Both the position numbers and the translations under genes were made by a program. A DNA stretch of 64,000 nucleotides. Origin: Candidatus Nomurabacteria bacterium. GTDB taxonomy: Bacteria > Patescibacteriota > Minisyncoccia > Phycocordibacterales > UBA9973. Within the stretch, counting starts at the first letter, position 1. Each line of letters starts with the position of its first letter. Shown one piece after another: positions 3,897-57,375 of this stretch. The DNA is taken from NCBI GenBank assembly GCA_016199805.1, contig JACQGC010000018.1:5219-69218 (forward strand), given 5' to 3'. Below the pieces are notes generated by a model that was not told the origin of the DNA, made no database searches, and saw only the letters and a list, made by a program, of their open reading frames with translations.

Positions 3897-4775
3897 ATGA
3901 AAAAATTTATTTTTCTGGTTTTTGCTTTTGTGTTTTTTGTGGGAGCTACTAAGGGCTTGGCTTTTGATATTCTAGCCAGACCGCAAAATTTTGTGAACGA
4001 CTACGCCGGAGTTCTTTCGGCGGAAAGCAAAAACGCGCTCGAGAGTAAAATTTCAAACTTCGAGAAACAAACAACTGACGAAATAGCGGTGGTCACAATC
4101 CCGTCCTTAGACGGAGACACGGTAGAAAATGTGGCGCAAGATATTTTCACCAAATGGGGCATCGGCAAAAAAGACAAAAATAATGGAGTGCTAATTTTAG
4201 TCGCCATTTCCGAACACAAGACCCGCATCCAGACCGGCTACGGAGTGGAGGGAGACCTCACCGACTTGGCGACTTCATACATGCAAAGCGAAATAATGGC
4301 CCCGGCTTTCAGGCAAAACGATTATTATTCCGGGCTCTCCGGCGCGGTGGATAAAATAATTGAATCCTTAAACGGTGGCAATGTCGTGCCCGAGGGATAT
4401 TCTTCATCCAAAAAATCAAACACAGATTGGAGTTTTATTTTCTTCCTCATGTTTATCGTTTTGCAGTGGGTTATCGCTATTTTAGGCAGGTCAAAATCTT
4501 GGTGGGGTGGCGGAGTGCTGGGGGCGGCTATCGGCGGAATAATCTGGTTTCTCGGATTGTTTTCTTTTACCATTTCGGCAGTCCTTTTTGCCTTCCTGAT
4601 AATTTTCGGGTTGGGGCTTGATTTTATTGTCTCGCGCGCTTACCAAAATGCGAAAAGCAAAGGCACACGTGTTCCTTGGTGGTTTGGTGGTGGCGGACCA
4701 GGTGGCGGTTCCGGAGGTTTTGGGGGATTTGGCGGCGGAATGTCGGGTGGTGGCGGTTCTTCGGGAGGCTGGTAG
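3897..4775 (+). CDS. TPM-domain protein (YgcG-like) with a Gly-rich C-terminus
   Basis: Signal peptide, then a TPM/methanol-dehydrogenase-like phosphatase domain (GVLILVAISEHKTRIQTGYG), TM segments and a GGGG tail. Confidence 0.8.
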   Translation: MKKFIFLVFAFVFFVGATKGLAFDILARPQNFVNDYAGVLSAESKNALESKISNFEKQTTDEIAVVTIPSLDGDTVENVAQDIFTKWGIGKKDKNNGVLILVAISEHKTRIQTGYGVEGDLTDLATSYMQSEIMAPAFRQNDYYSGLSGAVDKIIESLNGGNVVPEGYSSSKKSNTDWSFIFFLMFIVLQWVIAILGRSKSWWGGGVLGAAIGGIIWFLGLFSFTISAVLFAFLIIFGLGLDFIVSRAYQNAKSKGTRVPWWFGGGGPGGGSGGFGGFGGGMSGGGGSSGGW

Positions 4776-4802
4776 TTTGAATTCAGAATTACCACCCCTA
4801 AC

Positions 4803-4824
4803 CCCTCCTTAATCAAGGAGGGGA
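4803..4824. repeat. 22-bp perfect palindrome CCCCTCCTTAATCAAGGAGGGG (intergenic copy)
   Basis: Exact inverted symmetry. The identical 22-mer recurs at 38803-38824 inside a CDS. Confidence 0.7.
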
Positions 4825-5147: not shown

Positions 5148-5257
5148 ACCTGTCCCGTACTAAATTTTTTAGAAAATATATTATGATAAAATATAATTAG
5201 AAAGAAAAAAGAAATGAAAATTATTAATAAAAATTTAAAATTTTAGTACTGGGATGA
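5148..5257 (+). repeat. bipartite stem-loop element (copy 1) between gatC and gatA
   Basis: acctgtcccgtactaaattt ... aatttaaaattttagtactgggATGa. The ends are inverted repeats (cccgtactaaa / tttagtactggg) around an AT-rich loop. A second copy lies at 47230-47306. The element ends in the gatA start codon. Confidence 0.45.
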
Positions 5258-6672
5258 TTGATATAGCCAAACTCACAATTGCAGAGGCGAGAAAAAAATT
5301 GGATGCAAAAGAATTTAGCGCGGTAGATTTGGCGCAGGCATATTTGGATGAAATAAAAAAGAAAAACAAAGAACTTAATGCTTATCTGGAAATTTTTGAT
5401 GATGTTTTGGAACAAGCCAAAGAAGTGGATGCTCGAATTGCCAAAGGGGAGTCGTATCCATTGCTCGGTATTCCTATGGCTATCAAAGATGTTATTTTGA
5501 TAAAAGGTAGGCGAGTTTCTGCCGCGTCGAAAATTTTAGAAAATTACAGAGCCACTTATGACGCTACAGTAATAACCAAATTAAAAAAACAAGGTGCAGT
5601 ATTTTTAGGCAGAACAAACATGGATGAATTTGCCATGGGAGGTTCCACAGAAAATTCTGCTTTCGGCCCGACCAGAAATCCACACGACACCAGAAGGGTT
5701 TCTGGGGGGTCTTCGGGTGGATCTGTGGCTGCAGTGGCCTCCAATATGGCCCTAGGAGCACTGGGTTCAGACACAGGGGGTTCTGTGCGAGAGCCGGCAT
5801 CTTTCTGCGGGATAGTGGGTATGAAGCCTACCTATGGCCGTGTATCGCGTTATGGGCTTATAGCCATGGGTTCTTCGTTGGATTGTATAGGCAGTATTGC
5901 TAAAAACACTGAAGATGCAAAAATTATCTATGATGCCATTTATGGGCATGACATCTTGGATAGTACGAGTATTGAAGATACCACTTATGCAAAACCCCAA
6001 ATAAAAAAAGTTATCGGCGTACCTTGGGATTTAGTCAACATGGAAGGGGTGGATGTGAAAGTCAAAGAAAATTTTAAACAGTCTATTTCTAAATTGGAAA
6101 ATCTTGGTTTCAAAATCAATGATATTTCCATAAAAAATATTGATATGGCTCTGGCGACTTACTATATTATTATGCCGGCGGAATCTTCCACAAACTTATC
6201 GCGTTTTGATGGAATGAGATATGGGTTACATAAAGATGGAAAAGATTTACTTGAAGACTATAGATTGACAAAGAGGGCAGGTTTCGGGAAGGAGGTTCGC
6301 AGGAGAATTTTGCTTGGCACATATGTGCTTTCTTCTGGATATTACGATGCCTATTATGGCAAGGCACAAATAGCTAGGAGCGCGTTAAAAGAGGAATTCG
6401 CGAAAGCGTTCAAGGATGTAGACATTGTAGCCACTCCGACTGCTCCATTTGTGGCTTGGAAAATAGGTGAAAAAAGTGATCCGCTGTCCGTATATCTTGC
6501 TGATATTTTTACCATTACGGCAAACATGGTTGGTATTCCGGCGATTTCTATACCCTCCGGTTTTTCGGAAGTAGAAGGCAAAAAATTGCCATTAGGAATT
6601 CAGTTTATGGCGCCACACGGGGCAGAGGACCTGCTTTTTGAAGTTGGTAAGAAGTTTGAGACAGTGTTATAA
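5254..6672 (+). CDS. gatA: Glu-tRNA(Gln) amidotransferase subunit A
   Basis: 472 aa with the amidase signature GGSSGGSVAAVAS and an LTIAEARKKL N-terminus. Confidence 0.9.
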   Translation: MIDIAKLTIAEARKKLDAKEFSAVDLAQAYLDEIKKKNKELNAYLEIFDDVLEQAKEVDARIAKGESYPLLGIPMAIKDVILIKGRRVSAASKILENYRATYDATVITKLKKQGAVFLGRTNMDEFAMGGSTENSAFGPTRNPHDTRRVSGGSSGGSVAAVASNMALGALGSDTGGSVREPASFCGIVGMKPTYGRVSRYGLIAMGSSLDCIGSIAKNTEDAKIIYDAIYGHDILDSTSIEDTTYAKPQIKKVIGVPWDLVNMEGVDVKVKENFKQSISKLENLGFKINDISIKNIDMALATYYIIMPAESSTNLSRFDGMRYGLHKDGKDLLEDYRLTKRAGFGKEVRRRILLGTYVLSSGYYDAYYGKAQIARSALKEEFAKAFKDVDIVATPTAPFVAWKIGEKSDPLSVYLADIFTITANMVGIPAISIPSGFSEVEGKKLPLGIQFMAPHGAEDLLFEVGKKFETVL

Positions 6673-26150: not shown

Positions 26151-26624
26151 ATGGAAAAAGATTACATTTTCAAAACCAATCCGCAAAAGTCGGCCAACAA
26201 GGTCACTATCAATAGTTTTATGATGGGTTCTTTGTTTTTCGTTTTGACTCTCATCATCACCCTCGGCTCAAGCGAATTTTCGCATGCCATAATCTTCCAG
26301 CTGTTCTTGGCAGTGCCCTTGCTTTATGTTTCCAGCTTGGCTTATTCCAAAATCGGCTACTGGAAAGAAACTTATGAGTGGGATGCTTTGGGGTGGTTTA
26401 CAAACACTCTTGGCAACCTGTTTGTCATCAACGCCATCGGCTTGCTCGCGCTAAAATTCAGCTTAGGTTTGTCTCAGATTTACTTTGCTTTGTTCTCTTT
26501 CCTGATGGTCATTTACACCCTTATTAATATCCGGCAAAACAAAAAAATATTTTACGAAAAAATGTTCAAGTTAATTTTTCTCTTGTTGGTCGTGTTCCTC
26601 GGGGGAATTTTGTTTATAATGTAA
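26151..26624 (+). CDS. hypothetical polytopic membrane protein
   Basis: 157 aa, four predicted TM segments. Confidence 0.5.
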   Translation: MEKDYIFKTNPQKSANKVTINSFMMGSLFFVLTLIITLGSSEFSHAIIFQLFLAVPLLYVSSLAYSKIGYWKETYEWDALGWFTNTLGNLFVINAIGLLALKFSLGLSQIYFALFSFLMVIYTLINIRQNKKIFYEKMFKLIFLLLVVFLGGILFIM

Positions 26625-26630
26625 ATATAA

Positions 26631-26684
26631 TTTCGGCCGAGCTTTAATGGACGATTGCGCGGCATGATTTCGCAAAATCAAATG
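26631..26684 (+). repeat. about 45-nt conserved leader element (copy A); second copy at 35801-35850
   Basis: gcTTTAATGGACGATTGCGCGGCATGATTTCGC(a/t)AAATCAAAT is shared. It forms hairpin GCCGNGC...GCGCGGC and contains an ATG opening a short uORF in copy B. Confidence 0.45.
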
Positions 26685-27313: not shown

Positions 27314-27466
27314 CCCAAGCTTGGCGGGTGGCCGATTCCACCCACAAAAAACACAAGTCGTTAAGATTTCCTATGGAAAAACACTGGCGGCTTTTTATAT
27401 TTTTTCATAATGTATTCATAATTTAATTATATTGTTCTCGTGGACGTTCTACAAAAGGAGAGAAAA

Positions 27467-27979: not shown

Positions 27980-28017
27980 CAGTCCCGCCGGTCACTACCG
28001 GCGGGACTGGTTTGTTC
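27980..28017 (+). terminator. rho-independent terminator CAGUCCCGCCGGU-CACU-ACCGGCGGGACUG plus UUUGUU
   Basis: Perfect 13-bp stem. Confidence 0.6.
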
Positions 28018-28111
28018 ACAATGTATTCATAATCTAACGATATTATTTCAAAGTCGGAAATTATAAATTTTAATTCGCAACCCAGTAGGTGATTCTACTG
28101 AATCAAATAAT

Positions 28112-29024: not shown

Positions 29025-29130
29025 TCCCGGATATACCAAATCCCTGGACGAATTTTTCATAAAGCTTTCATAAAAATCTGGTATTTTCTTAGGGTCGAGT
29101 AGATTAAAAAAACAAGTATCAATAAATTTT

Positions 29131-38681: not shown

Positions 38682-39191
38682 ATGGAACCAAAAAATAATT
38701 CACAAAAAAATATAGCCATCGCCCTAGTCGCCGTCGCCATAGCCGCAGTTTTATCTGTGCCTATTTTCTTGGGAAAGAAAACCACCACCCTGCCTTCGGC
38801 ACCCCTCCTTAATCAAGGAGGGGATGGGAGTGGTAATTCTACTCCAGTCGTTTCGAAAACTCCTCCGGTAGACGTTCCCAAGAAAACTCTTTCGGTTTAC
38901 AAAGATGGCACCTATACGGCTACAGGTTCTTACGATTCTCCGGGTGGAATGGATAAAGTCACCGTCACCCTTACGCTAAAAAGTGATGTCGTCACCGATG
39001 TTTCGGTGACTCCGATAGCAGGTGATAGTCTTTCAAAGAAATATCAGGATATGTTTGTCTCCGGCTACAAGCAATTTGTCGTCGGGCAAAAAATAGCCGG
39101 CTTGCAGCTCTCAAAAGTTTCCGGTTCATCTCTTACTCCAATCGGTTTCAACGCTGCGCTCACCCAAATAAAAGCGCAAGCCAAGGCATAG
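38682..39191 (+). CDS. FMN-binding domain protein (extracytoplasmic flavoprotein)
   Basis: TM, then YKDGTYTATGSYDSPGGMDKVTVTLTLK...TPIGFNAAL (FMN_bind; the conserved Thr/Ser flavinylation site context). Confidence 0.7.
   Translation: MEPKNNSQKNIAIALVAVAIAAVLSVPIFLGKKTTTLPSAPLLNQGGDGSGNSTPVVSKTPPVDVPKKTLSVYKDGTYTATGSYDSPGGMDKVTVTLTLKSDVVTDVSVTPIAGDSLSKKYQDMFVSGYKQFVVGQKIAGLQLSKVSGSSLTPIGFNAALTQIKAQAKA
38803..38824. repeat. 22-bp palindrome CCCCTCCTTAATCAAGGAGGGG embedded in-frame in the FMN-binding protein CDS
   Basis: Identical to 4803-4824. Encodes PLLNQGG within a low-complexity linker after the TM. Confidence 0.7.
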
Positions 39192-39194
39192 TTT

Positions 39195-40067
39195 ATGGCG
39201 CAATTTACTTTTGACGGTATCGGCACGAAGTGGCAGATAGATATATTTGAAGATTTATCGGAAATAGACCAAGACAAACTTCTGGCTCGCGTAAAAAATC
39301 GCATCGAAGTTTTTGACAAAAACTATTCGCGTTTTCGCGATGATTCGCTAGTGACTAAAATGTCCAAAGAAACGGGCGTTTTTGCGCTACCCGACGACGC
39401 GGAAAAGATGTTTACCCTTTATTATGATTTATATAAAATTACCGACGGATATTTTACACCGTTAGTCGGAAACATATTATCCGACGCGGGATATGATGCG
39501 AAATATACTTTAAAGCAAAAAAAAGAACTGGAAAAAGCGCCGATCTGGGAAGATGTGATGGAATATAAATTTCCAAACATCGAAATTAAAAAACCGGTCA
39601 TCTTGGATTTTGGCGCGGGAGGAAAAGGGTACTTGCTCGATTTGGTGGCAAAAGAAATTGAAGCGAGTGGAATTTTTGAATATTGCATTGATGCGGGCGG
39701 AGATATCTTGCACAAAAATAAAGTACCGACTCGGGTAGGCTTGGAGAATCCGGAAAACACAGAGGAGGCGATAGGTGTTTACAACTTACAAAACAAAAGT
39801 ATAGCCGGTTCAGCTGGCAACAGGCGTGCGTGGGGAAATTTCACCCACATAATGAATCCCAAAACCCTAATTTCACCGAGAGACATAATAGCAGTCTGGG
39901 TAGTGGCGGAAACTGGTCTCGTGGCAGATGCGCTTGCCACCTGCCTATTTTTCGTTCCAGTATCCACCTTGTCAGACAAATACAAATTTGAATACGTTTT
40001 AGTAAAAAAAGACCATTCCATAGAAAAATCGTCCAATTTCAAAGGTGAGATGTTTTTAAAATCTTAA
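39195..40067 (+). CDS. apbE: FAD:protein FMN transferase (ApbE family)
   Basis: DGIGTKWQIDI..., LDFGAGGKGYLLD, CIDAGGDI; directly downstream of its likely substrate, the FMN-binding protein. Confidence 0.85.
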   Translation: MAQFTFDGIGTKWQIDIFEDLSEIDQDKLLARVKNRIEVFDKNYSRFRDDSLVTKMSKETGVFALPDDAEKMFTLYYDLYKITDGYFTPLVGNILSDAGYDAKYTLKQKKELEKAPIWEDVMEYKFPNIEIKKPVILDFGAGGKGYLLDLVAKEIEASGIFEYCIDAGGDILHKNKVPTRVGLENPENTEEAIGVYNLQNKSIAGSAGNRRAWGNFTHIMNPKTLISPRDIIAVWVVAETGLVADALATCLFFVPVSTLSDKYKFEYVLVKKDHSIEKSSNFKGEMFLKS

Positions 40068-40096
40068 ATTATATTGTTACCCCTAGATCAATACCT

Positions 40097-40516
40097 ATGC
40101 CCCATTTCAGCCATGGCGTAAATGGGGCAGTGTGGTATCATATATACATGAGCCCAAGATATAAAGGTATGCGAGTAAATGCTTTCGGTTTGCCAGCATT
40201 TAAAAATGGCAGGAAAAGCCGTGCAAAAACTGAAAACAGGAAAAAATCTTTTTATCATGTCACTTTTCTTTCACCTTTTAAAAAAGATTCTTCAAAGAAT
40301 TTGATTGTAATGTACGACATTCCACATTTACAGAAAAAGGAGCGGGATTGGTTTCGTCGGCAATTAATAAAATTTGATTATATAATGATTCAAAAAAGTG
40401 TTTGGGTTGGACCGTCTCCACTACCCAAAAATTTCTTAGACTACTTAAAAGAAATAAAAATAGGGGATAAGTTTAAAACCTTTACATTGGCAAAATCTTA
40501 TACAGAAAAACTTTAA
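40097..40516 (+). CDS. hypothetical small protein with a Cas2/VapD-like C-terminal half
   Basis: NLIVMYDIPHLQKKERDWFRRQLIKFDYIMIQKSVW...GDKFKTFTLA resembles the Cas2 pattern (hydrophobic strand-YD, ...R..R..L...G..IQ.SVF, ...D.V.I..L). The ORF start lies inside a palindrome, so the true start may be internal. Confidence 0.4.
   Translation: MPHFSHGVNGAVWYHIYMSPRYKGMRVNAFGLPAFKNGRKSRAKTENRKKSFYHVTFLSPFKKDSSKNLIVMYDIPHLQKKERDWFRRQLIKFDYIMIQKSVWVGPSPLPKNFLDYLKEIKIGDKFKTFTLAKSYTEKL
40098..40129. repeat. 32-bp palindrome TGCCCCATTTCAGCCATGGCGTAAATGGGGCA (near-perfect; upstream copy)
   Basis: Centred on CCATGG; differs from the downstream copy by a CA/AC swap. Confidence 0.75.
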
Positions 40517-40537
40517 TTTACTACATTACTTACCGAC

Positions 40538-40569
40538 TGCCCCATTTACGCCATGGCGTAAATGGGGCA
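40538..40569. repeat. 32-bp perfect palindrome TGCCCCATTTACGCCATGGCGTAAATGGGGCA (downstream copy)
   Basis: Its reverse complement equals itself. Second copy 440 bp upstream; together they bracket the Cas2-like ORF. Confidence 0.8.
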
Positions 40570-40617
40570 CGATGTCTTGATGTATAATTTTTTTCATAAT
40601 TTTGCTATAATAGCTTC

Positions 40618-42360
40618 GTGGAATCACAAACTAAACAGTGCCAGAATTGCCAGAAAGACTTTATAATAGAGCCGGATGATTTCGGTTTTTACGAGAAAAT
40701 AAAAGTCCCTCCGCCGACCTTTTGCCCGGAATGCCGGCTACAAAGGCGCTTGGCCTGGCGTAACGAGCGGGCCTTGTACAAACGCAAGTGCGGTTTATGC
40801 CAAAAAAGTATTATTGCAATGTATCATGAATCCATGCCATTTCCCGTATATTGTCGAGAGTGTTGGTTCGGAGATGGATGGGACCCAACTTTATATGGAA
40901 AGAAATACGATTTCAATAGAACATTTTTCGAACAATATAAAGAATTTTCAAATACTGTGCCCAGGCTAGCTTTGTGGCAAAGGAGTTCTACAAATTCAGA
41001 TTATTCCAATATGGTTGGAGAATCGAAAAATGTATATCTATCTTCTTCGGTTGTAAAAGAATCAGAAAATGTTTTTTATTCAAAGTCGGTAGATAGATCC
41101 AGAGATATCGTTGATTGTTTAAATATAATAAACGGATCAGAGAGTTTGTATGAGAACGTGGAAGCACAAAGTAATTATAATTCTCAATATCTTTTACTCT
41201 GCAGGAGTTGTTTGGATTCATACTATTCTGTTGATTGTATAAATTGTAGTAATTGTTTTCTTTCTTACAATTTGCGAAATAAAAAATTTTGTATTCGCAA
41301 TCAGCAATATGAAAAGGAAGATTATTTTAAGAAAATAGAAAAATTAAATTTAAGGAGCAGGGCTTCACGTGATTTTTTGCTGGAAGAATTTGCAGAAATT
41401 AAAAAGAAGGCAATTTATCGTTTTGGAAATATCACTAAATGTATTAATGTGACAGGAAATAATCTTTTGAATGTAAAAAATGGTAAAGATTGTTTTGAAA
41501 TTTATGATGTGGAAAATGCGAAATATTGTTATCGAGCGTTTAATCTCAAAGACTGTATGGATTTTGATTATGGAGGGTGGTCAGAATTGATGTATGAGTA
41601 CGTAACTGGCAGTCTAAATGATTATAATGTTAAATTTAGTTATTCTGCGATGGAATCCGTAAGAAATGCCGATTATACGGAATTTTGTCGAAATTGTTCT
41701 AATCTGTTTGGTTGTATTTCACTTAAAAATACAGAAAATGCAATTCTGAATATAATTTATTCCAAGGAAGAATACGAAAAACTCCGGACGCAAATCATGG
41801 AACATATGAATAGCAATCCATTTATAGACAAAGCAGGCAAAGTTTATCGATATGGAGAATTTTTTCCTATAGAAGTTTCTCCTTGGGTATATAATGAGAC
41901 TTTGTCTCAGGAATTTTTCCCAATTACCAAAGAAGAGGCGGAGAGGAATGGTTATCCATGGCGGGAACCGGATGTAAAAAATTTCGAGATTACAATTCCT
42001 ACAGAAAACATTCTGGACAATATTGACGATGTTAGTGAAGATATTTTAAAAGATGTTCTGGGTTGTGCCCACGCAGGAGAGTGTGCTCATCAATGCAATA
42101 CTGCTTTTCGTTTAACAAACTATGAACTGGTTTTTTATAAAAAACATAACATACCGCTTCCAATTCTTTGCCCCAACTGTCGTTATTACGAAAGATTCAA
42201 AGTTATGCCAGCATTGAAATTATGGCACAGGCAATGCATGTGTGATAAGAAACACACGCACCATGAGGGCAGATGCGAGATTGAATTTGAGACCAGCTAT
42301 GCGCCAGATAGGCCGGAAATAGTATATTGTGAAAAGTGTTACCAGCAGGAGGTTTACTAG
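40618..42360 (+). CDS. 580-aa cysteine-rich protein with N- and C-terminal zinc-ribbon modules and a central Asn/Ser/Cys repeat region
   Basis: GTG start after an extended -10 (GCTATAAT). Termini: CQNC-17-CPECRLQRR...C.LC and CPNCRYYERF...C.C, each with the shared FY.K..(V/I)P.P..CP.CR motif. The middle has about 20-aa periodic repeats (C.NCSN.F...). Confidence 0.6.
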   Translation: MESQTKQCQNCQKDFIIEPDDFGFYEKIKVPPPTFCPECRLQRRLAWRNERALYKRKCGLCQKSIIAMYHESMPFPVYCRECWFGDGWDPTLYGKKYDFNRTFFEQYKEFSNTVPRLALWQRSSTNSDYSNMVGESKNVYLSSSVVKESENVFYSKSVDRSRDIVDCLNIINGSESLYENVEAQSNYNSQYLLLCRSCLDSYYSVDCINCSNCFLSYNLRNKKFCIRNQQYEKEDYFKKIEKLNLRSRASRDFLLEEFAEIKKKAIYRFGNITKCINVTGNNLLNVKNGKDCFEIYDVENAKYCYRAFNLKDCMDFDYGGWSELMYEYVTGSLNDYNVKFSYSAMESVRNADYTEFCRNCSNLFGCISLKNTENAILNIIYSKEEYEKLRTQIMEHMNSNPFIDKAGKVYRYGEFFPIEVSPWVYNETLSQEFFPITKEEAERNGYPWREPDVKNFEITIPTENILDNIDDVSEDILKDVLGCAHAGECAHQCNTAFRLTNYELVFYKKHNIPLPILCPNCRYYERFKVMPALKLWHRQCMCDKKHTHHEGRCEIEFETSYAPDRPEIVYCEKCYQQEVY

Positions 42361-42383: not shown

Positions 42384-42406
42384 CCTCCCCCTAATGTAGG
42401 GGGAGG
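42384..42406. repeat. palindrome CCTCCCCCTA-ATG-TAGGGGGAGG
   Basis: 10-bp arms. Nearly identical element at 56997-57018 (CCTCCCCCTACGTAGGGGGAGG). Confidence 0.7.
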
Positions 42407-54685: not shown

Positions 54686-55066
54686 ATGCCCATTTTATTT
54701 ATTTTTGGTAGAGTTTTGTTCGGGGGTTACTTTATTATGAGCGGTTACAATCATTTCAGGCATCATCGCATGTTCACGGGCTATGCGCAGTCCAAGGGCG
54801 TGCCTTTGGCGCCGCTAGCCGTGTGGTTCACCGGTTTGATGCTCATCTTTGGAGGGGTGGGAATACTTCTCTGGGTTTACTTAAAATTTTCAATTATTTT
54901 ATTAGCTGTATTCTTGCTCGTGACGACTTTAGTCATGCATCAGTACTGGAAAGTCACCGACCAAAACATGAGAATGACAGAGCAAATCAACTTCAATAAA
55001 AACATGGCGCTTTTGGGTGCTTTACTTCTCTTTTTTTCTATTCCTCTGCCTTGGTCGGTTTCTTAA
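54686..55066 (+). CDS. DoxX-family membrane protein
   Basis: LFIFGRVLFGGYFIMSGYNHF..., 4 TM. Confidence 0.75.
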   Translation: MPILFIFGRVLFGGYFIMSGYNHFRHHRMFTGYAQSKGVPLAPLAVWFTGLMLIFGGVGILLWVYLKFSIILLAVFLLVTTLVMHQYWKVTDQNMRMTEQINFNKNMALLGALLLFFSIPLPWSVS

Positions 55067-56727
55067 TTGCCGAAAATATTTCCGAGCAATCTCATAAACC
55101 AATTCTTTTTTGGAGTTTCCGTCTGCGGTACTTCGGGAGCTGGTGTGAGCGCATTTATTACTGATGCGGTGTTTTGAGTGCTGGGATTATTTGCGACATT
55201 CATTGATTTTGGTTTAGGGTTTTTTGTTGCGCTTATTTCCGGGATGGGGGCGCTTTTTACTTTTACTAGTGGGGTTTCCGTGACTGCTGGCATTTCCGGT
55301 TTTGTAAAACTTTGCATTACCTGGTTCCAGCTTTTGCCGGAAAGGGCAGAGGTTACATAGGCGGTTTCCCAGGTTTTATTGGTAACGCTTTCATTTTTTA
55401 CTCCGCCGTCCGTGTCTTGGATTGTTGCCAAATAATCAGATGGAGTATTGCCATTTTTTGCCCAATCTTCCGGTTTTTCATTCATGGCCAATATTCCTTC
55501 CAGTGCCCAAGCGGTGGAAGAAGCATTGTCATTCCAGCTACCGTCATCTTTTTGATTTTGTTTTAAGAAATCTTCAGCCTTAGTTAAAGCATTTGGTATC
55601 TTTTCCTCCCCTGACAAGGGGAGGGCAGGGAGGGGTTGTATTTTATTGAACATTGCCAGCGCCTCTATCGCCGCGCCGGTCATATCCACAGAACCATCCC
55701 AAGAACCGTTTGTGTTTTGCTCGCTCAAAACAAAGGAGATGTCAGCATTTATCATTTGGTCATTTTGTGTGTAACCGGCATTTTGCAGAACAATCAATGC
55801 AAAGATGTCGTCATTGTCTTGGTTTGCATCTCCGAATTGTTTGCCGTCGAAAGAATCGGTTATTTTTTTGATATAATTTTCGCCGTTGGTGTCGTATGGG
55901 TTGAGTCCGAGCGACATCAATGCCATAGCATGTCTTTCATAATCGGTTATATTTAAAGCTGTGATTTTTGAAATCCCAAAATATTTTATCAATTTCAATA
56001 CCTGCGCCTGATTGTTTCCGGAAGCCAGAGATAAAGCAGCCCAGTCGGTGTATAAATCGGAACCCCAAGACCCGTCGGCGTTTTGTTGTGCAATCAAAAA
56101 ATCGTAAGCTTTTTGTGTGTCAAAAGCTAGCTTGGCGGGTGGTGTAGCTGGGGCTGTTATCGTAGGTGAATCGGTAGTAGTGGGGTTTGTATATGTAATA
56201 AGCGGACCTCCGCCACTACTTACGGGGATTAATGAATTAATGTGAAGTATTACTTGGTCGCTTGCAGTGCTGCCAGGAGCCCAATTATCAATCTTAAAAA
56301 TTATCGTATCTTGCGCCACCACTGGCAGGGAAGAAATACCAAGCATAGAAAAATTATCTGGCGAAGTTCCATTTTTATATATTGCCCAATATTGGCTAGA
56401 TGGATCAGGCACAACGTCATTAATTGAGTCAATCTGTAATCCAAGACCCGGAAAATTTGAAAATTTTGCACCCAAAACCGAAGAGCCGTTTTTTGTTGCA
56501 GCATCAAATGCACAAATAGCTAGATAAGAACCCATAGAAGTTGTTTCTGGGTAACTATATACTACTCCATTCTTGTCGGTTACTGTACAGCTGGCTGGTA
56601 CATCTATCATTATGTCAATGTTTAGCGGTGCCGCATGCGCTGTGCCAAAAAAACCAAGAACCATAAAACCTAGCAACACTATTTTAAAAATTTGATTTTT
56701 CATATTTCCAGGAGACCATGTCCCCAA
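55063..56727 (-). CDS. secreted prenyltransferase/squalene-oxidase-repeat (alpha/alpha-toroid) protein; transcobalamin alpha-domain-like
   Basis: Signal peptide; repeated QxxDGSWG motifs (DGSWGSD, NGSWDGS, DGSWNDN) characteristic of PFTB/terpene-cyclase repeats. Confidence 0.7.
   Translation of the reverse strand: MGTWSPGNMKNQIFKIVLLGFMVLGFFGTAHAAPLNIDIMIDVPASCTVTDKNGVVYSYPETTSMGSYLAICAFDAATKNGSSVLGAKFSNFPGLGLQIDSINDVVPDPSSQYWAIYKNGTSPDNFSMLGISSLPVVAQDTIIFKIDNWAPGSTASDQVILHINSLIPVSSGGGPLITYTNPTTTDSPTITAPATPPAKLAFDTQKAYDFLIAQQNADGSWGSDLYTDWAALSLASGNNQAQVLKLIKYFGISKITALNITDYERHAMALMSLGLNPYDTNGENYIKKITDSFDGKQFGDANQDNDDIFALIVLQNAGYTQNDQMINADISFVLSEQNTNGSWDGSVDMTGAAIEALAMFNKIQPLPALPLSGEEKIPNALTKAEDFLKQNQKDDGSWNDNASSTAWALEGILAMNEKPEDWAKNGNTPSDYLATIQDTDGGVKNESVTNKTWETAYVTSALSGKSWNQVMQSFTKPEMPAVTETPLVKVKSAPIPEISATKNPKPKSMNVANNPSTQNTASVINALTPAPEVPQTETPKKNWFMRLLGNIFGN
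55605..55624. repeat. palindrome CCTCCCCTGACAAGGGGAGG inside the - strand CDS
   Basis: Same family as 139-240. Encodes PLSGEE in-frame. Confidence 0.6.
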
Positions 56728-57133
56728 TTTTTATTTTATAATTTGAAACGCCGACAGACGCTTCGACCCCGTTCACATAATAAATCCAACTCATACTATT
56801 ATTATTTTTTATTTCATTTATGCTATCAATGAATTTTCCCATTCCGGTGTACTCTTTTTCAGTAAAGTTAATTTTTTTCTCACTCCGGAGCTTGTCCATA
56901 AAGTCATAAACACTCGTTTCACCCGGTATATCGTCTTTTAGGTCTAATTTCTTTATCTCGGGAGTTGTTTTTGGCGGTGAAAGTACCCCTACCCGTCCTC
57001 CCCCTACGTAGGGGGAGGAGAAAGGAGGGGGTATATACCTAGAATTTTGCTTTTGAATATTTTTATAAACAAAAATAGAGCCCAGACAAGCTATAAGTAA
57101 AACTATTAAAATTATTTTCTTGGTTTTAAACAT
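56684..57133 (-). CDS. DUF4430 domain protein (transcobalamin beta-domain-like)
   Basis: TM, then YVNGVEASVGVSNYKIKIGDMVSWKY C-terminal DUF4430 signature. Start taken at the ATG at 57133 so that the upstream terminator hairpin is not coding. Confidence 0.7.
   Translation of the reverse strand: MFKTKKIILIVLLIACLGSIFVYKNIQKQNSRYIPPPFSSPYVGGGRVGVLSPPKTTPEIKKLDLKDDIPGETSVYDFMDKLRSEKKINFTEKEYTGMGKFIDSINEIKNNNSMSWIYYVNGVEASVGVSNYKIKIGDMVSWKYEKSNF
56997..57018. repeat. palindrome CCTCCCCCTACGTAGGGGGAGG inside the DUF4430 CDS
   Basis: Near-identical to 42384-42406. Encodes SPPYVGGG in-frame. Confidence 0.65.
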
Positions 57134-57140
57134 AAAAAAA

Positions 57141-57325
57141 CTGCCTTGCGGGCAGAATTGGGGAACCTTCACCCTGTCATTCGCGAATGACGGGGTTCAA
57201 ATAAAGAAGAAGGTTTATCCTGCTCGGGACTAATGAAATAATTGGTATTCGGACTTGTTCCCGACCTAAATCGAGACTTACCGTAGCGGCACTGTACTGG
57301 AATCTAACCAGTTTCCCCAATCACT
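57141..57325 (-). promoter_or_regulatory. probable cobalamin riboswitch (aptamer plus intrinsic terminator) upstream of the DUF4430 operon
   Basis: The - strand RNA reads GAUUGGGGAAACUGGUUAGAUUCCAGUACAGUGCCGCUACGGUAAG..., resembling the cobalamin-riboswitch core (AGGGAA, GGUGAAAUUCC, GCAGCGGUAAGG as in E. coli btuB). Its 3' end is CUGCCCGCAAGGCAG plus U7 immediately before the ATG. Confidence 0.55.
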
Positions 57326-57375
57326 TCTTTTGGTTTTTAAATGAACGTCTTTAGTATATACTGGTTTCATACGCT

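Follow-up and report, generated by a model that had tools for sequence, protein, structure and literature searches.

The stretch of DNA considered here (the window) comprises 64,000 nucleotides of contig JACQGC010000018.1 (assembly GCA_016199805.1) from a Candidatus Nomurabacteria bacterium (Paceibacteria, candidate phyla radiation), and within it a small gene is bracketed by two copies of a palindrome of about 30 bp and followed by a far longer gene for a Cys-rich protein of 580 residues (Table 1). Both palindromes had been recognised in a preliminary description of the stretch made from its letters alone, and they hold up as the sole matches in the 64 kb at up to three mismatches, where shuffled sequence gives an expectation of zero. 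The upstream copy departs from TGCCCCATTTACGCCATGGCGTAAATGGGGCA by an AC-to-CA exchange in the left arm. More generally, the element can be defined as a 20-nt core, ATTT(AC/CA)GCCATGGCGTAAAT, carried between complementary arms of 5-6 bp whose sequence is specific to the lineage. The downstream copy lies 21 nt 3' of the stop codon of the small gene, and its centre is 64.5 nt upstream of the GTG at which the 580-aa gene starts. The 10-mer TGCCCCATTT at 4152 was tried as a degenerate copy and rejected as a chance match. The centre of the palindrome (40113-40121 and 40553-40561) reads ATG GCG TAA on both strands, forming a two-codon mini-ORF (open reading frame); in lineages with the ATAT variant the TAA of this mini-ORF is lost and gene callers place the start of the small protein at the central ATG of the palindrome.

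Table 1. Positions of the palindromes, genes and promoter boxes at the locus, numbered from the first letter of the window.
Feature	Position	Strand	Remarks
Upstream palindrome copy	40098-40129		Core ATTTCAGCCATGGCGTAAAT ('CA' variant), arms TGCCCC/GGGGCA; 2 mismatches
Extended -10 box TGGTATCAT	40133-40141	+	6 nt before ATG 40148; leaderless-type promoter, without a -35 hexamer
Small gene, 122-aa protein	40148-40516	+	Basic N-terminal arm (residues 1-50), then PaaX_M/Cas2-like domain (51-122)
Downstream palindrome copy TGCCCCATTTACGCCATGGCGTAAATGGGGCA	40538-40569		Perfect, 32 bp; self-reverse-complementary
Extended -10 box TGCTATAAT	40603-40611	+	6 nt before GTG 40618; leaderless-type promoter of the 580-aa gene
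580-aa Cys-rich protein gene	40618-42360	+	GTG start; locus tag HY311_03890

The gene between the palindromes had been described as a bracketed ORF of 140 codons. The ORF is real and its start was misplaced: the frame at 40097-40516 (139 codons) begins 17 codons too early, those codons running through the upstream palindrome, and a start at ATG 40148 agrees with homologues and with the NCBI record. A Cas2-type pattern had also been noted in the C-terminal half, and both Pfam and NCBIfam support it, although the subtype can be given more precisely as PaaX_M. The Pfam family PaaX_M (PF20803, 'PaaX protein central Cas2-like domain') matches at E 5.2e-12 (46.1 bits, cutoff 24), CRISPR_Cas2 (PF09827) at E 6.5e-7 (29.9 bits, cutoff 23.8) and the NCBIfam cas2 model TIGR01573 at 25.6 bits (cutoff 24.5). 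The matches to Cas2 models, which include those of PADLOC, are marginal, cover residues 69-121 only and are weaker than the match to PaaX_M. At E<=1 in Pfam the protein contains neither the N-terminal winged helix of PaaX nor a PaaX_C domain, and the NCBIfam PaaX model TIGR02277 reaches 14.6 bits against a cutoff of 264. No VapD family was matched at E<=1 in Pfam or at 0.1 in NCBIfam, and no conserved partner gene accompanies the gene at orthologous loci. An HUH/Y1 transposase (Y1_Tnp) was likewise not matched in Pfam or NCBIfam, and the alignment of the small protein contains no conserved His-x-His.

More than 1,700 homologues exist at 60-90% identity, labelled 'CRISPR-associated endonuclease Cas2' at NCBI and 'PaaX' at JGI. 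Their alignment has the invariant stretches YD57IP, ERDWFRR and QKSVWVGPSPLP; the Asp that ends the first beta strand (D57), which corresponds to the metal site of Cas2, is invariant, as are several Tyr residues. The basic N-terminal arm is conserved as well, reading YKGMRVNxFGxP...GRKSRAK..NRKK in the window and YKGMRVNxFGxP...RKSRxK..NRKR in the alignment. An AlphaFold2 (AF2) model has the strand and helix order beta-alpha-beta-beta-alpha-beta, as in the ferredoxin-like fold of Cas2, but at a mean confidence (pLDDT) of 47.6 it is unreliable, and a profile search of the Protein Data Bank (PDB) with the alignment returned Cas2 chains only, weakly (E 0.006-0.14).

The upstream palindrome is coupled to the promoter of the small gene: counted from the ATG, which would also be the transcription start site, it covers about -50 to -19 and takes the place of a -35 region; a consensus -35/-10 scan misses this promoter because it lacks a -35 box. 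In about 25 orthologues the same order is found, in which the end of the core is followed by 9-10 nt, TGnTAnnnT or a close -10 box, 5-7 nt and the ATG, with variable sequence in between, and this conserved spacing indicates that the mRNA of the small gene is leaderless. A palindromic site at the promoter is a trait of PaaX regulators, and by its sequence the small gene has one. The upstream copy thus stands at the position of an autoregulatory operator, and autoregulation is its most likely role. Across orthologues the downstream copy is placed more loosely, at -18 to +27 nt counted from the stop codon, and some annotated small genes end within it ('...ISAMA', then stop) while others begin within the upstream copy.

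This arrangement is not peculiar to the window. We examined more than 30 orthologous loci in at least eight gene neighbourhoods, and the small gene is bracketed wherever both flanks are on the contig; bracketing on both sides was scored by script at no fewer than 21 non-redundant loci, and at more by eye. With x for the small gene, the neighbourhoods include thrS|x|rpmF (about eight loci), smc|x, argS|x|beta-helix protein, murJ|x|lepA, PAP2, apbE|x|big (a relative of the 580-aa gene) and others. Within the syntenic block thrS-rpmF-nusB-rnc-smc the place of the bracketed unit varies (L024 compared with L027 and L148): in L027 the small gene follows smc, bracketed, and thrS stands next to rpmF. 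When the thrS-rpmF spacers of L024 (with the cassette) and L027 (without it) were aligned, the intergenic DNA proved too diverged to yield insertion boundaries, and Rfam found no T-box upstream of thrS in L024. The link drawn earlier between the palindromes and the small ORF is therefore specific, in that they flank the gene at every orthologous locus examined.

The grouping of the small gene and the 580-aa gene as a unit did not survive the same comparison. Upstream of the closest orthologue of the 580-aa protein (79% identity, L001) lies a cytochrome-b5-like gene, and neither the small gene nor the palindrome is present there; in the same genome the small gene (88% identical) sits between thrS and rpmF, bracketed by palindromes. 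Among the matches listed, a gene of the 580-aa family (hereafter the big family) stands beside the small gene at only two of about 35 loci, namely in the window and in L075. The comparison of loci indicates that the palindromes belong to the small gene rather than to the gene pair.

The dyad symmetry of the palindrome is maintained by compensatory change. In 52 copies flanking small genes, 12 of the 16 base pairs show changes on both sides, and cells with a double change number 119 against 58.8 in shuffles (none of 500 shuffles reaches 119), a signal that collapses in slid controls. One-sided changes of the wobble (G-U) type fill only about a dozen cells among these copies. The core itself varies symmetrically by lineage (GCCATGGC, ACCATGGT, GCTATAGC; ATTT/AAAT, ATAT/ATAT), and its variant is common to both copies at one gene. 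Among the 120 unique sites listed from metagenomes (see below), five positions outside the core are complementary at about twice expectation, with several types of pair. Strict Watson-Crick dyad symmetry of this kind is what one would expect of a dimer on duplex DNA or of a DNA hairpin, and less of an RNA helix. Some sites are hybrids, with one half of the CCCC type and the other of the ACAT type; their arms are non-complementary and of two discrete types.

Protein and site also vary together. At 25 of 25 loci, the N-terminal arm of the protein opens the motif xRKSRAK with Arg if the palindrome has CCCC/GGGG arms and with Lys or Gln if those arms are of the ACAY type. When this rule was set as a prediction on six newly fetched loci, five agreed and L148 did not, for a total of 30 of 31.

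Relatives of the small protein in related genomes are consistent with DNA recognition. Proteins of about 170 residues combine a winged helix with PaaX_M (E 3.5e-21 and 1.8e-13), and such regulators are encoded at L003:9491-10110 and L010:7738-8330 and also in L005, L007, L012 and L055. The L010 type is divergent from dnaK (in L003 and L010), with a conserved 30-bp palindrome, ACAAGTATTTCGCGACCGCGAAATACTTGT, between its -35 and -10 boxes; as a side observation, this regulator may be a heat-shock or chaperone regulator specific to the candidate phyla radiation (CPR). The L015 type shares 40% identity with the window protein over the common domain. It stands divergent to a gene of the big family and is bracketed on both sides, at 5385-5430 and 5935-5990, by a palindrome of its own (TTATAACC..AGACGATCGTCT..GTTATAA; core AGACGATCGTCT). 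The common design of these sites, an outer arm, an A/T tract and a 12-bp GC-rich palindromic centre, suggests that a common mode of DNA recognition operates in the family. Regulators beside arrays of big-family genes (L003, L005, L007, L010, L012) were at one time taken as an independent link between regulator and big gene; this was withdrawn because they represent one syntenic arrangement (array|regulator|dnaK) with the operator only at the regulator's own promoter.

The palindrome also occurs alone. Metagenome contigs were scanned for exact ATTTNNGCCATGGCGTAAAT, giving at least 120 loci, and the counts of sites that follow are among the matches listed. About 35 of these loci have a bracketed gene, about 22 touch a big-family gene, about 25 fall within ORFs and the remainder occupy short gaps between genes; a few matches in GC-rich contigs are due to chance, and viral contigs scanned for the core gave none. 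The preliminary description had held that a palindrome found elsewhere and unrelated to the gene would be a generic repeat, and in part this is what we see, since about two-thirds of the 120 listed metagenomic sites are without a small gene. Copy number is low: the 64-kb window has two, both at the small gene, and loci from species representatives, about 230 kb in all, have three solo copies. Readings of the palindrome as a DNA-uptake sequence or as a parS-like site were set aside in view of this low number.

Solo palindromes adjoin genes of the big family far more often than any other gene (about 22 loci), a real though looser link. Typically, the palindrome fills the spacer between tandem paralogues, starting at or beside the stop codon (...YQQEVY, then stop) and leaving 10-25 nt to the following ATG, in which a Shine-Dalgarno-like AGGAG is often found. 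The remaining solo copies are turned towards gene ends more than towards gene starts (32 and 19, respectively), often at 0-10 nt from the stop; some stand between convergent genes (L106, L050), and in L101 the palindrome lies ahead of a canonical terminator, in the 3' untranslated region (3' UTR). In 24 of 25 cases the asymmetric CA variant runs in the same direction as the gene beside it, and the element is thus polar with respect to transcription and probably to replication.

About a quarter of the listed sites are in frame within real conserved ORFs, namely comF-like genes (seven loci), rsmI (four), reverse-transcriptase-like genes (four), M24 peptidase (two), DHFR, rnhA and a uvrC-like gene. 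They translate as HLRHGVN/HFSHGVN, FTPWRK or IYAMAEM and retain the core only. Against an orthologue without the palindrome, the uvrC-like gene contains a clean in-frame insertion of 27 nt (+9 codons), while in rnhA and rsmI a loop is replaced at near-equal length. The rsmI loop contains the core in four species (L099, L074, L069 and L126); in L146 (1406-2092; protein 87% identical) it contains instead an unrelated segment of 24 nt, weakly self-complementary and encoding RFDLIEVG, so that the loop looks like a hot spot of replacement. In the reverse-transcriptase-like gene (about 340 aa, YADD motif; L041, L091, L115, L141) the in-frame core has the CA variant reversed, which removes a stop codon.

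The 580-aa protein keeps much of its earlier description. The GTG start and leaderless-type promoter given for its gene agree with our reading of TGCTATAAT, and its duplicated Cys modules at the two termini are homologous to each other (BLASTP E 1e-9). Homology (E 1e-6) also links the pair of middle modules with CxNCSNxF that had been seen as a central repeat. Its modules run in the order treble-clef-like zinc module, two beta-solenoid-like modules each ending in CxNCSNxF...Y(S/E)KE(E/D)Y, and second zinc module. An AF2 model reaches pLDDT 76.5, its structure matches being weak and to beta-solenoids, and a PDB profile search with the family alignment found nothing. Homologues exceed 5,387, all 'hypothetical'. 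The view that neither protein at the locus resembles a characterised family holds for this one, for which Pfam, NCBIfam and PADLOC contain no family, and fails for the small protein, which exceeds Pfam and NCBIfam thresholds and is annotated as Cas2 or PaaX. The zinc-finger models zf_Tbcl/zf_Tbcl_2 do not match the window protein; among homologues, P0047 and a paralogue in L009 score 20-23 bits against a cutoff of 27. Many Paceibacteria genomes contain tandem head-to-tail arrays of three to five diverged paralogues (31-47% identity; L012:1228-9750, L003:2507-9443, L019:4531-11556, L005, L008, L017, L018), and contig MFUM01000008 has two separate arrays. By comparison of loci, then, the 580-aa gene appears as a neighbour of the palindrome unit here and not a conserved part of it, and its family as the preferred neighbour of solo palindromes.

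Based on these observations, we propose with moderate confidence that the small protein is a palindrome-recognising, autoregulated DNA-binding protein of the Cas2/PaaX_M fold, associated with a dispersed palindromic repeat resembling the repetitive extragenic palindromes (REPs) of other bacteria. The protein would bind nucleic acid as a dimer built of a core of the Cas2/PaaX_M fold and a pair of basic N-terminal arms, and its target would be the dyad-symmetric element of about 30 bp, which we presume to be bound as DNA rather than as RNA. The upstream copy stands in for the -35 of a leaderless extended -10 promoter; since it replaces that region, the small protein most likely autoregulates there, and the downstream copy closes the unit. 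The element itself is a low-copy dispersed repeat of Paceibacteria, inserted directly after stops, between paralogues of the 580-aa family and in frame in housekeeping genes. Operator sites, ends of a small mobile unit and recognition sites for the small protein had been offered as alternatives for the palindromes, and the evidence suggests that more than one holds at once. A search of the literature on PaaX/Cas2-like proteins, on CPR Cas2 with palindromes and on palindromic repeats of Parcubacteria found nothing relevant.

Several observations weigh against this proposal. The fold of the small protein is drawn from matches to hidden Markov models and from secondary-structure order, with the AF2 model at pLDDT 47.6, and the protein is without the winged helix that binds DNA in its PaaX relatives. 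L148 breaks the rule that relates Arg to the arms, and that covariation takes no account of phylogeny, although identity to the window protein overlaps between the two classes. The search pattern demanded an exact core, and conservation of the core among solo sites is therefore partly circular. Copy number (two in 64 kb; about one per 50-100 kb elsewhere) is low, unlike that of classical REPs, and many solo sites are in transcribed positions (intercistronic, or the 3' UTR in L101) that would also fit a role in RNA. There are no HUH or Tyr transposase motifs, and we found no recent presence/absence polymorphism.

A doubtful alternative is that the unit is a selfish mobile element, in which the small protein would be a nuclease or recombinase that moves the palindromes and the bracketed unit through a strand-specific hairpin intermediate, by analogy with IS200/IS605 elements or with REPs and their tyrosine transposases (RAYTs), but with an enzyme of the Cas2 fold. 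The different spots taken by the bracketed unit within the thrS-rpmF-nusB-rnc-smc block, the clean 27-nt insertion in uvrC and the in-frame copies in at least seven unrelated gene families are all consistent with such movement. So are the gathering of solo copies at the most permissive places (after stops and between convergent genes), the 24:1 orientation bias relative to gene direction, and hence probably to replication direction, and the invariance of D57 and several Tyr residues in the protein. However, there is no HUH motif, no Pfam match to a transposase or recombinase and no target-site duplication; copy number is low, and the viral contigs scanned contained no copies. Several sites are old and vertically inherited, as in the comF-like genes (seven loci), rsmI (four) and the thrS|x|rpmF arrangement (about eight), and the relatives of the small protein resemble ordinary transcription factors. 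A more speculative form of this claim is that the 122-aa Cas2-fold protein is an enzyme mobilising palindromes of about 30 bp. The two together would represent a minimal mobile element of a new, hairpin-based class, which would be active in CPR bacteria and could enter essential genes in frame.

An ordinary transcription factor with its regulon, that is, a PaaX-type repressor or activator with the palindromes as operators and the Cys-rich 580-aa family as main target, we regard as unlikely. It accounts well for the exact coupling of the upstream copy to a promoter, for the PaaX_M domain and for the operators at promoters of the relatives, and the window's own palindrome lies upstream of the big-gene promoter; about 22 of some 100 genuine listed sites abut big-family genes, compared with the 1-3% of gene junctions expected. 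It does not readily accommodate the quarter of listed sites inside coding regions, nor the many sites between convergent genes or at 0-10 nt past a stop without room for a promoter, and the distance to downstream promoters is not constant (-34, -56, -64). Repeated origin of a 20-nt site within genes by point mutation is also implausible, and uvrC shows insertion.

Less likely still is an RNA element, a hairpin of mRNA in the 3' UTR or between cistrons that is bound or cut by a Cas2/VapD-like endoribonuclease and controls the stability of mRNA or the processing of operons. RNase activity has been reported for some members of the Cas2 and VapD families, and the palindromes fold as stable RNA hairpins (-19 to -27 kcal/mol, z down to -5.3; the downstream copy in the window at -25.7 kcal/mol, z -5.2). 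Their placement right after stops, in operons and arrays, with Shine-Dalgarno-like sequence next or, in L101, before a terminator, and the sense orientation of their asymmetry would suit such a role. Against this, the covarying positions keep strict Watson-Crick pairing and G-U intermediates are nearly absent, the arms of hybrid sites are non-complementary and of two discrete types, and intragenic copies consist of the core only. The upstream copy precedes the transcription start of the small gene, in some loci beside a divergent gene. Rfam gave no match to the palindrome at gathering score in the window and four further loci, with only chance-level matches at E<=1. An intrinsic-terminator scan over 39950-40750 found none, and no T-run follows the palindrome copies.

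A degenerate remnant of CRISPR adaptation, in which a stand-alone Cas2 outlived cas1 and its array and the palindromes are relic repeats, would fit TIGR01573 lying just above its cutoff, the PADLOC matches and the public annotation, but it is excluded for practical purposes by the better match to PaaX_M, by the additional conserved N-terminal arm of 50 residues, by more than 1,700 homologues with a conserved promoter, which imply strong purifying selection as a stand-alone gene, and by the lack of an array or other cas gene both in the window, where array and tandem-repeat searches agree with the preliminary description, and at more than 30 orthologous loci, where the neighbours, in more than 10 contexts, are thrS, rpmF, smc, argS, murJ, lepA and the like.

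These results bear on how the small protein is annotated and studied. Thousands of public records name it 'CRISPR-associated endonuclease Cas2' although it is not CRISPR-associated, and surveys of CRISPR in CPR bacteria are therefore inflated where they include it. The palindrome is a conserved and apparently undescribed cis-element of Paceibacteria with a likely cognate protein, which would be a Cas2-fold dimer with basic arms instead of a helix-turn-helix. Its in-frame copies in housekeeping genes, together with an architecture like that of REPs and RAYTs, allow direct tests, in extremely reduced genomes, of how short palindromic repeats arise and spread. As preferred neighbour of the repeat, the tandemly amplified Cys-rich zinc-finger/beta-solenoid family (over 5,000 members) gains a first handle. 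Should the small protein prove to mobilise the palindromes, the Cas2 fold would gain a stand-alone role in DNA transactions outside CRISPR.

Additional features of the window are recorded here. An identical 24-nt hairpin, ACCCCTCCTTAATCAAGGAGGGGA, occurs twice (4801-4824 and 38801-38824), and similar CCTCCCCC...GGGGGAGG hairpins lie at 42384-42406, after the 580-aa gene, and at 56996-57019, with related ones in L009 and L027; these hairpins form a second family and are probably gene-end structures without a T-run. The promoter-like motif TTTTTTCATAATGTATTCATAAT is found five times (26609-26631, 27400-27422, 28011-28033, 29052-29074 and 40589-40611), the last being the region of the 580-aa gene's promoter. 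At 57223-57362 on the minus strand, a cobalamin riboswitch (Rfam RF00174, 36.6 bits) is followed by a palindrome, ACCCTGTCATTCGCGAATGACGGGGT, at 57171-57196 and an ORF at 56684-57172, also on the minus strand. Long ORFs are nearly all on the plus strand up to 54644 and on the minus strand from 55063, and the convergent switch at about 54700-55060 may mark a replication terminus. Near-identical direct repeats form the pairs 26636-26683/35803-35850 (48 nt, 96%) and 17621-17652/19916-19947 (32 nt, 97%), and a further pair, 5206-5257/47255-47306 (52 nt, 88%), precedes ORFs at 5254 and 47303.

Several known systems share parts of this arrangement. Replication terminator protein (RTP) and its Ter sites in Bacillus subtilis, and ParB with parS, both small dimeric site-specific DNA-binding proteins with sites at a few chromosomal places, offer a possible parallel in low-copy conserved dyad sites, some within genes, that are polar and, beside the gene, overlap the protein's own promoter with autoregulation. 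They have no relationship in sequence or fold to the small protein, and origin of sites by insertion is not known to be a feature of either system. Rickettsia palindromic elements (RPEs) are comparable as palindromes tolerated in frame at loops of conserved genes, as here in the uvrC-like gene, rnhA, rsmI, the comF-like genes and DHFR. RPEs are roughly 100-150 bp in length, whereas the Paceibacteria element is about 27-32 bp, has a dedicated protein gene that it flanks and belongs to a different phylum. CRISPR Cas2 and VapD share with the small protein the beta-alpha-beta-beta-alpha-beta order, predicted for the latter at low confidence, the hydrophobic-YD ending of the first strand and the QxSVW strand; the small gene differs in being without cas1, an array or a toxin-antitoxin partner, and its product in the extra N-terminal arm and the better match to PaaX_M.

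The nearest relatives by domain are the PaaX regulators (COG3327; Pfam PaaX/PaaX_M/PaaX_C), which have the same central Cas2-like domain and a palindrome over their own promoter, and the winged-helix and PaaX_M proteins of the same bacteria likewise have promoter palindromes of about 30 bp. The small protein differs in its length (122 residues against about 300) and in having, instead of the winged helix and the PaaX_C domain for ligand binding and dimerisation, a basic and probably extended N-terminal arm; its sites lie on both sides of the gene and are also scattered elsewhere, some of them within ORFs. In its arrangement, the system is closest to REPs with their RAYTs (TnpA_REP), where one protein gene is bracketed by copies of a palindromic repeat of 20-40 bp, the repeat is dispersed extragenically, typically just past genes or between convergent genes, its copies are strand-oriented, and repeat and protein co-vary by lineage. 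The differences are that the small protein is not an HUH/Y1 transposase and its repeat has no GTAG/CGTC 5' tag, that copies appear far fewer in the Paceibacteria loci scanned than the tens to hundreds of REPs per genome and are also found in frame within genes, and that the upstream copy is part of a promoter. By analogy, then, the architecture can be viewed as that of REPs and RAYTs, built on an unrelated protein fold of the PaaX type.

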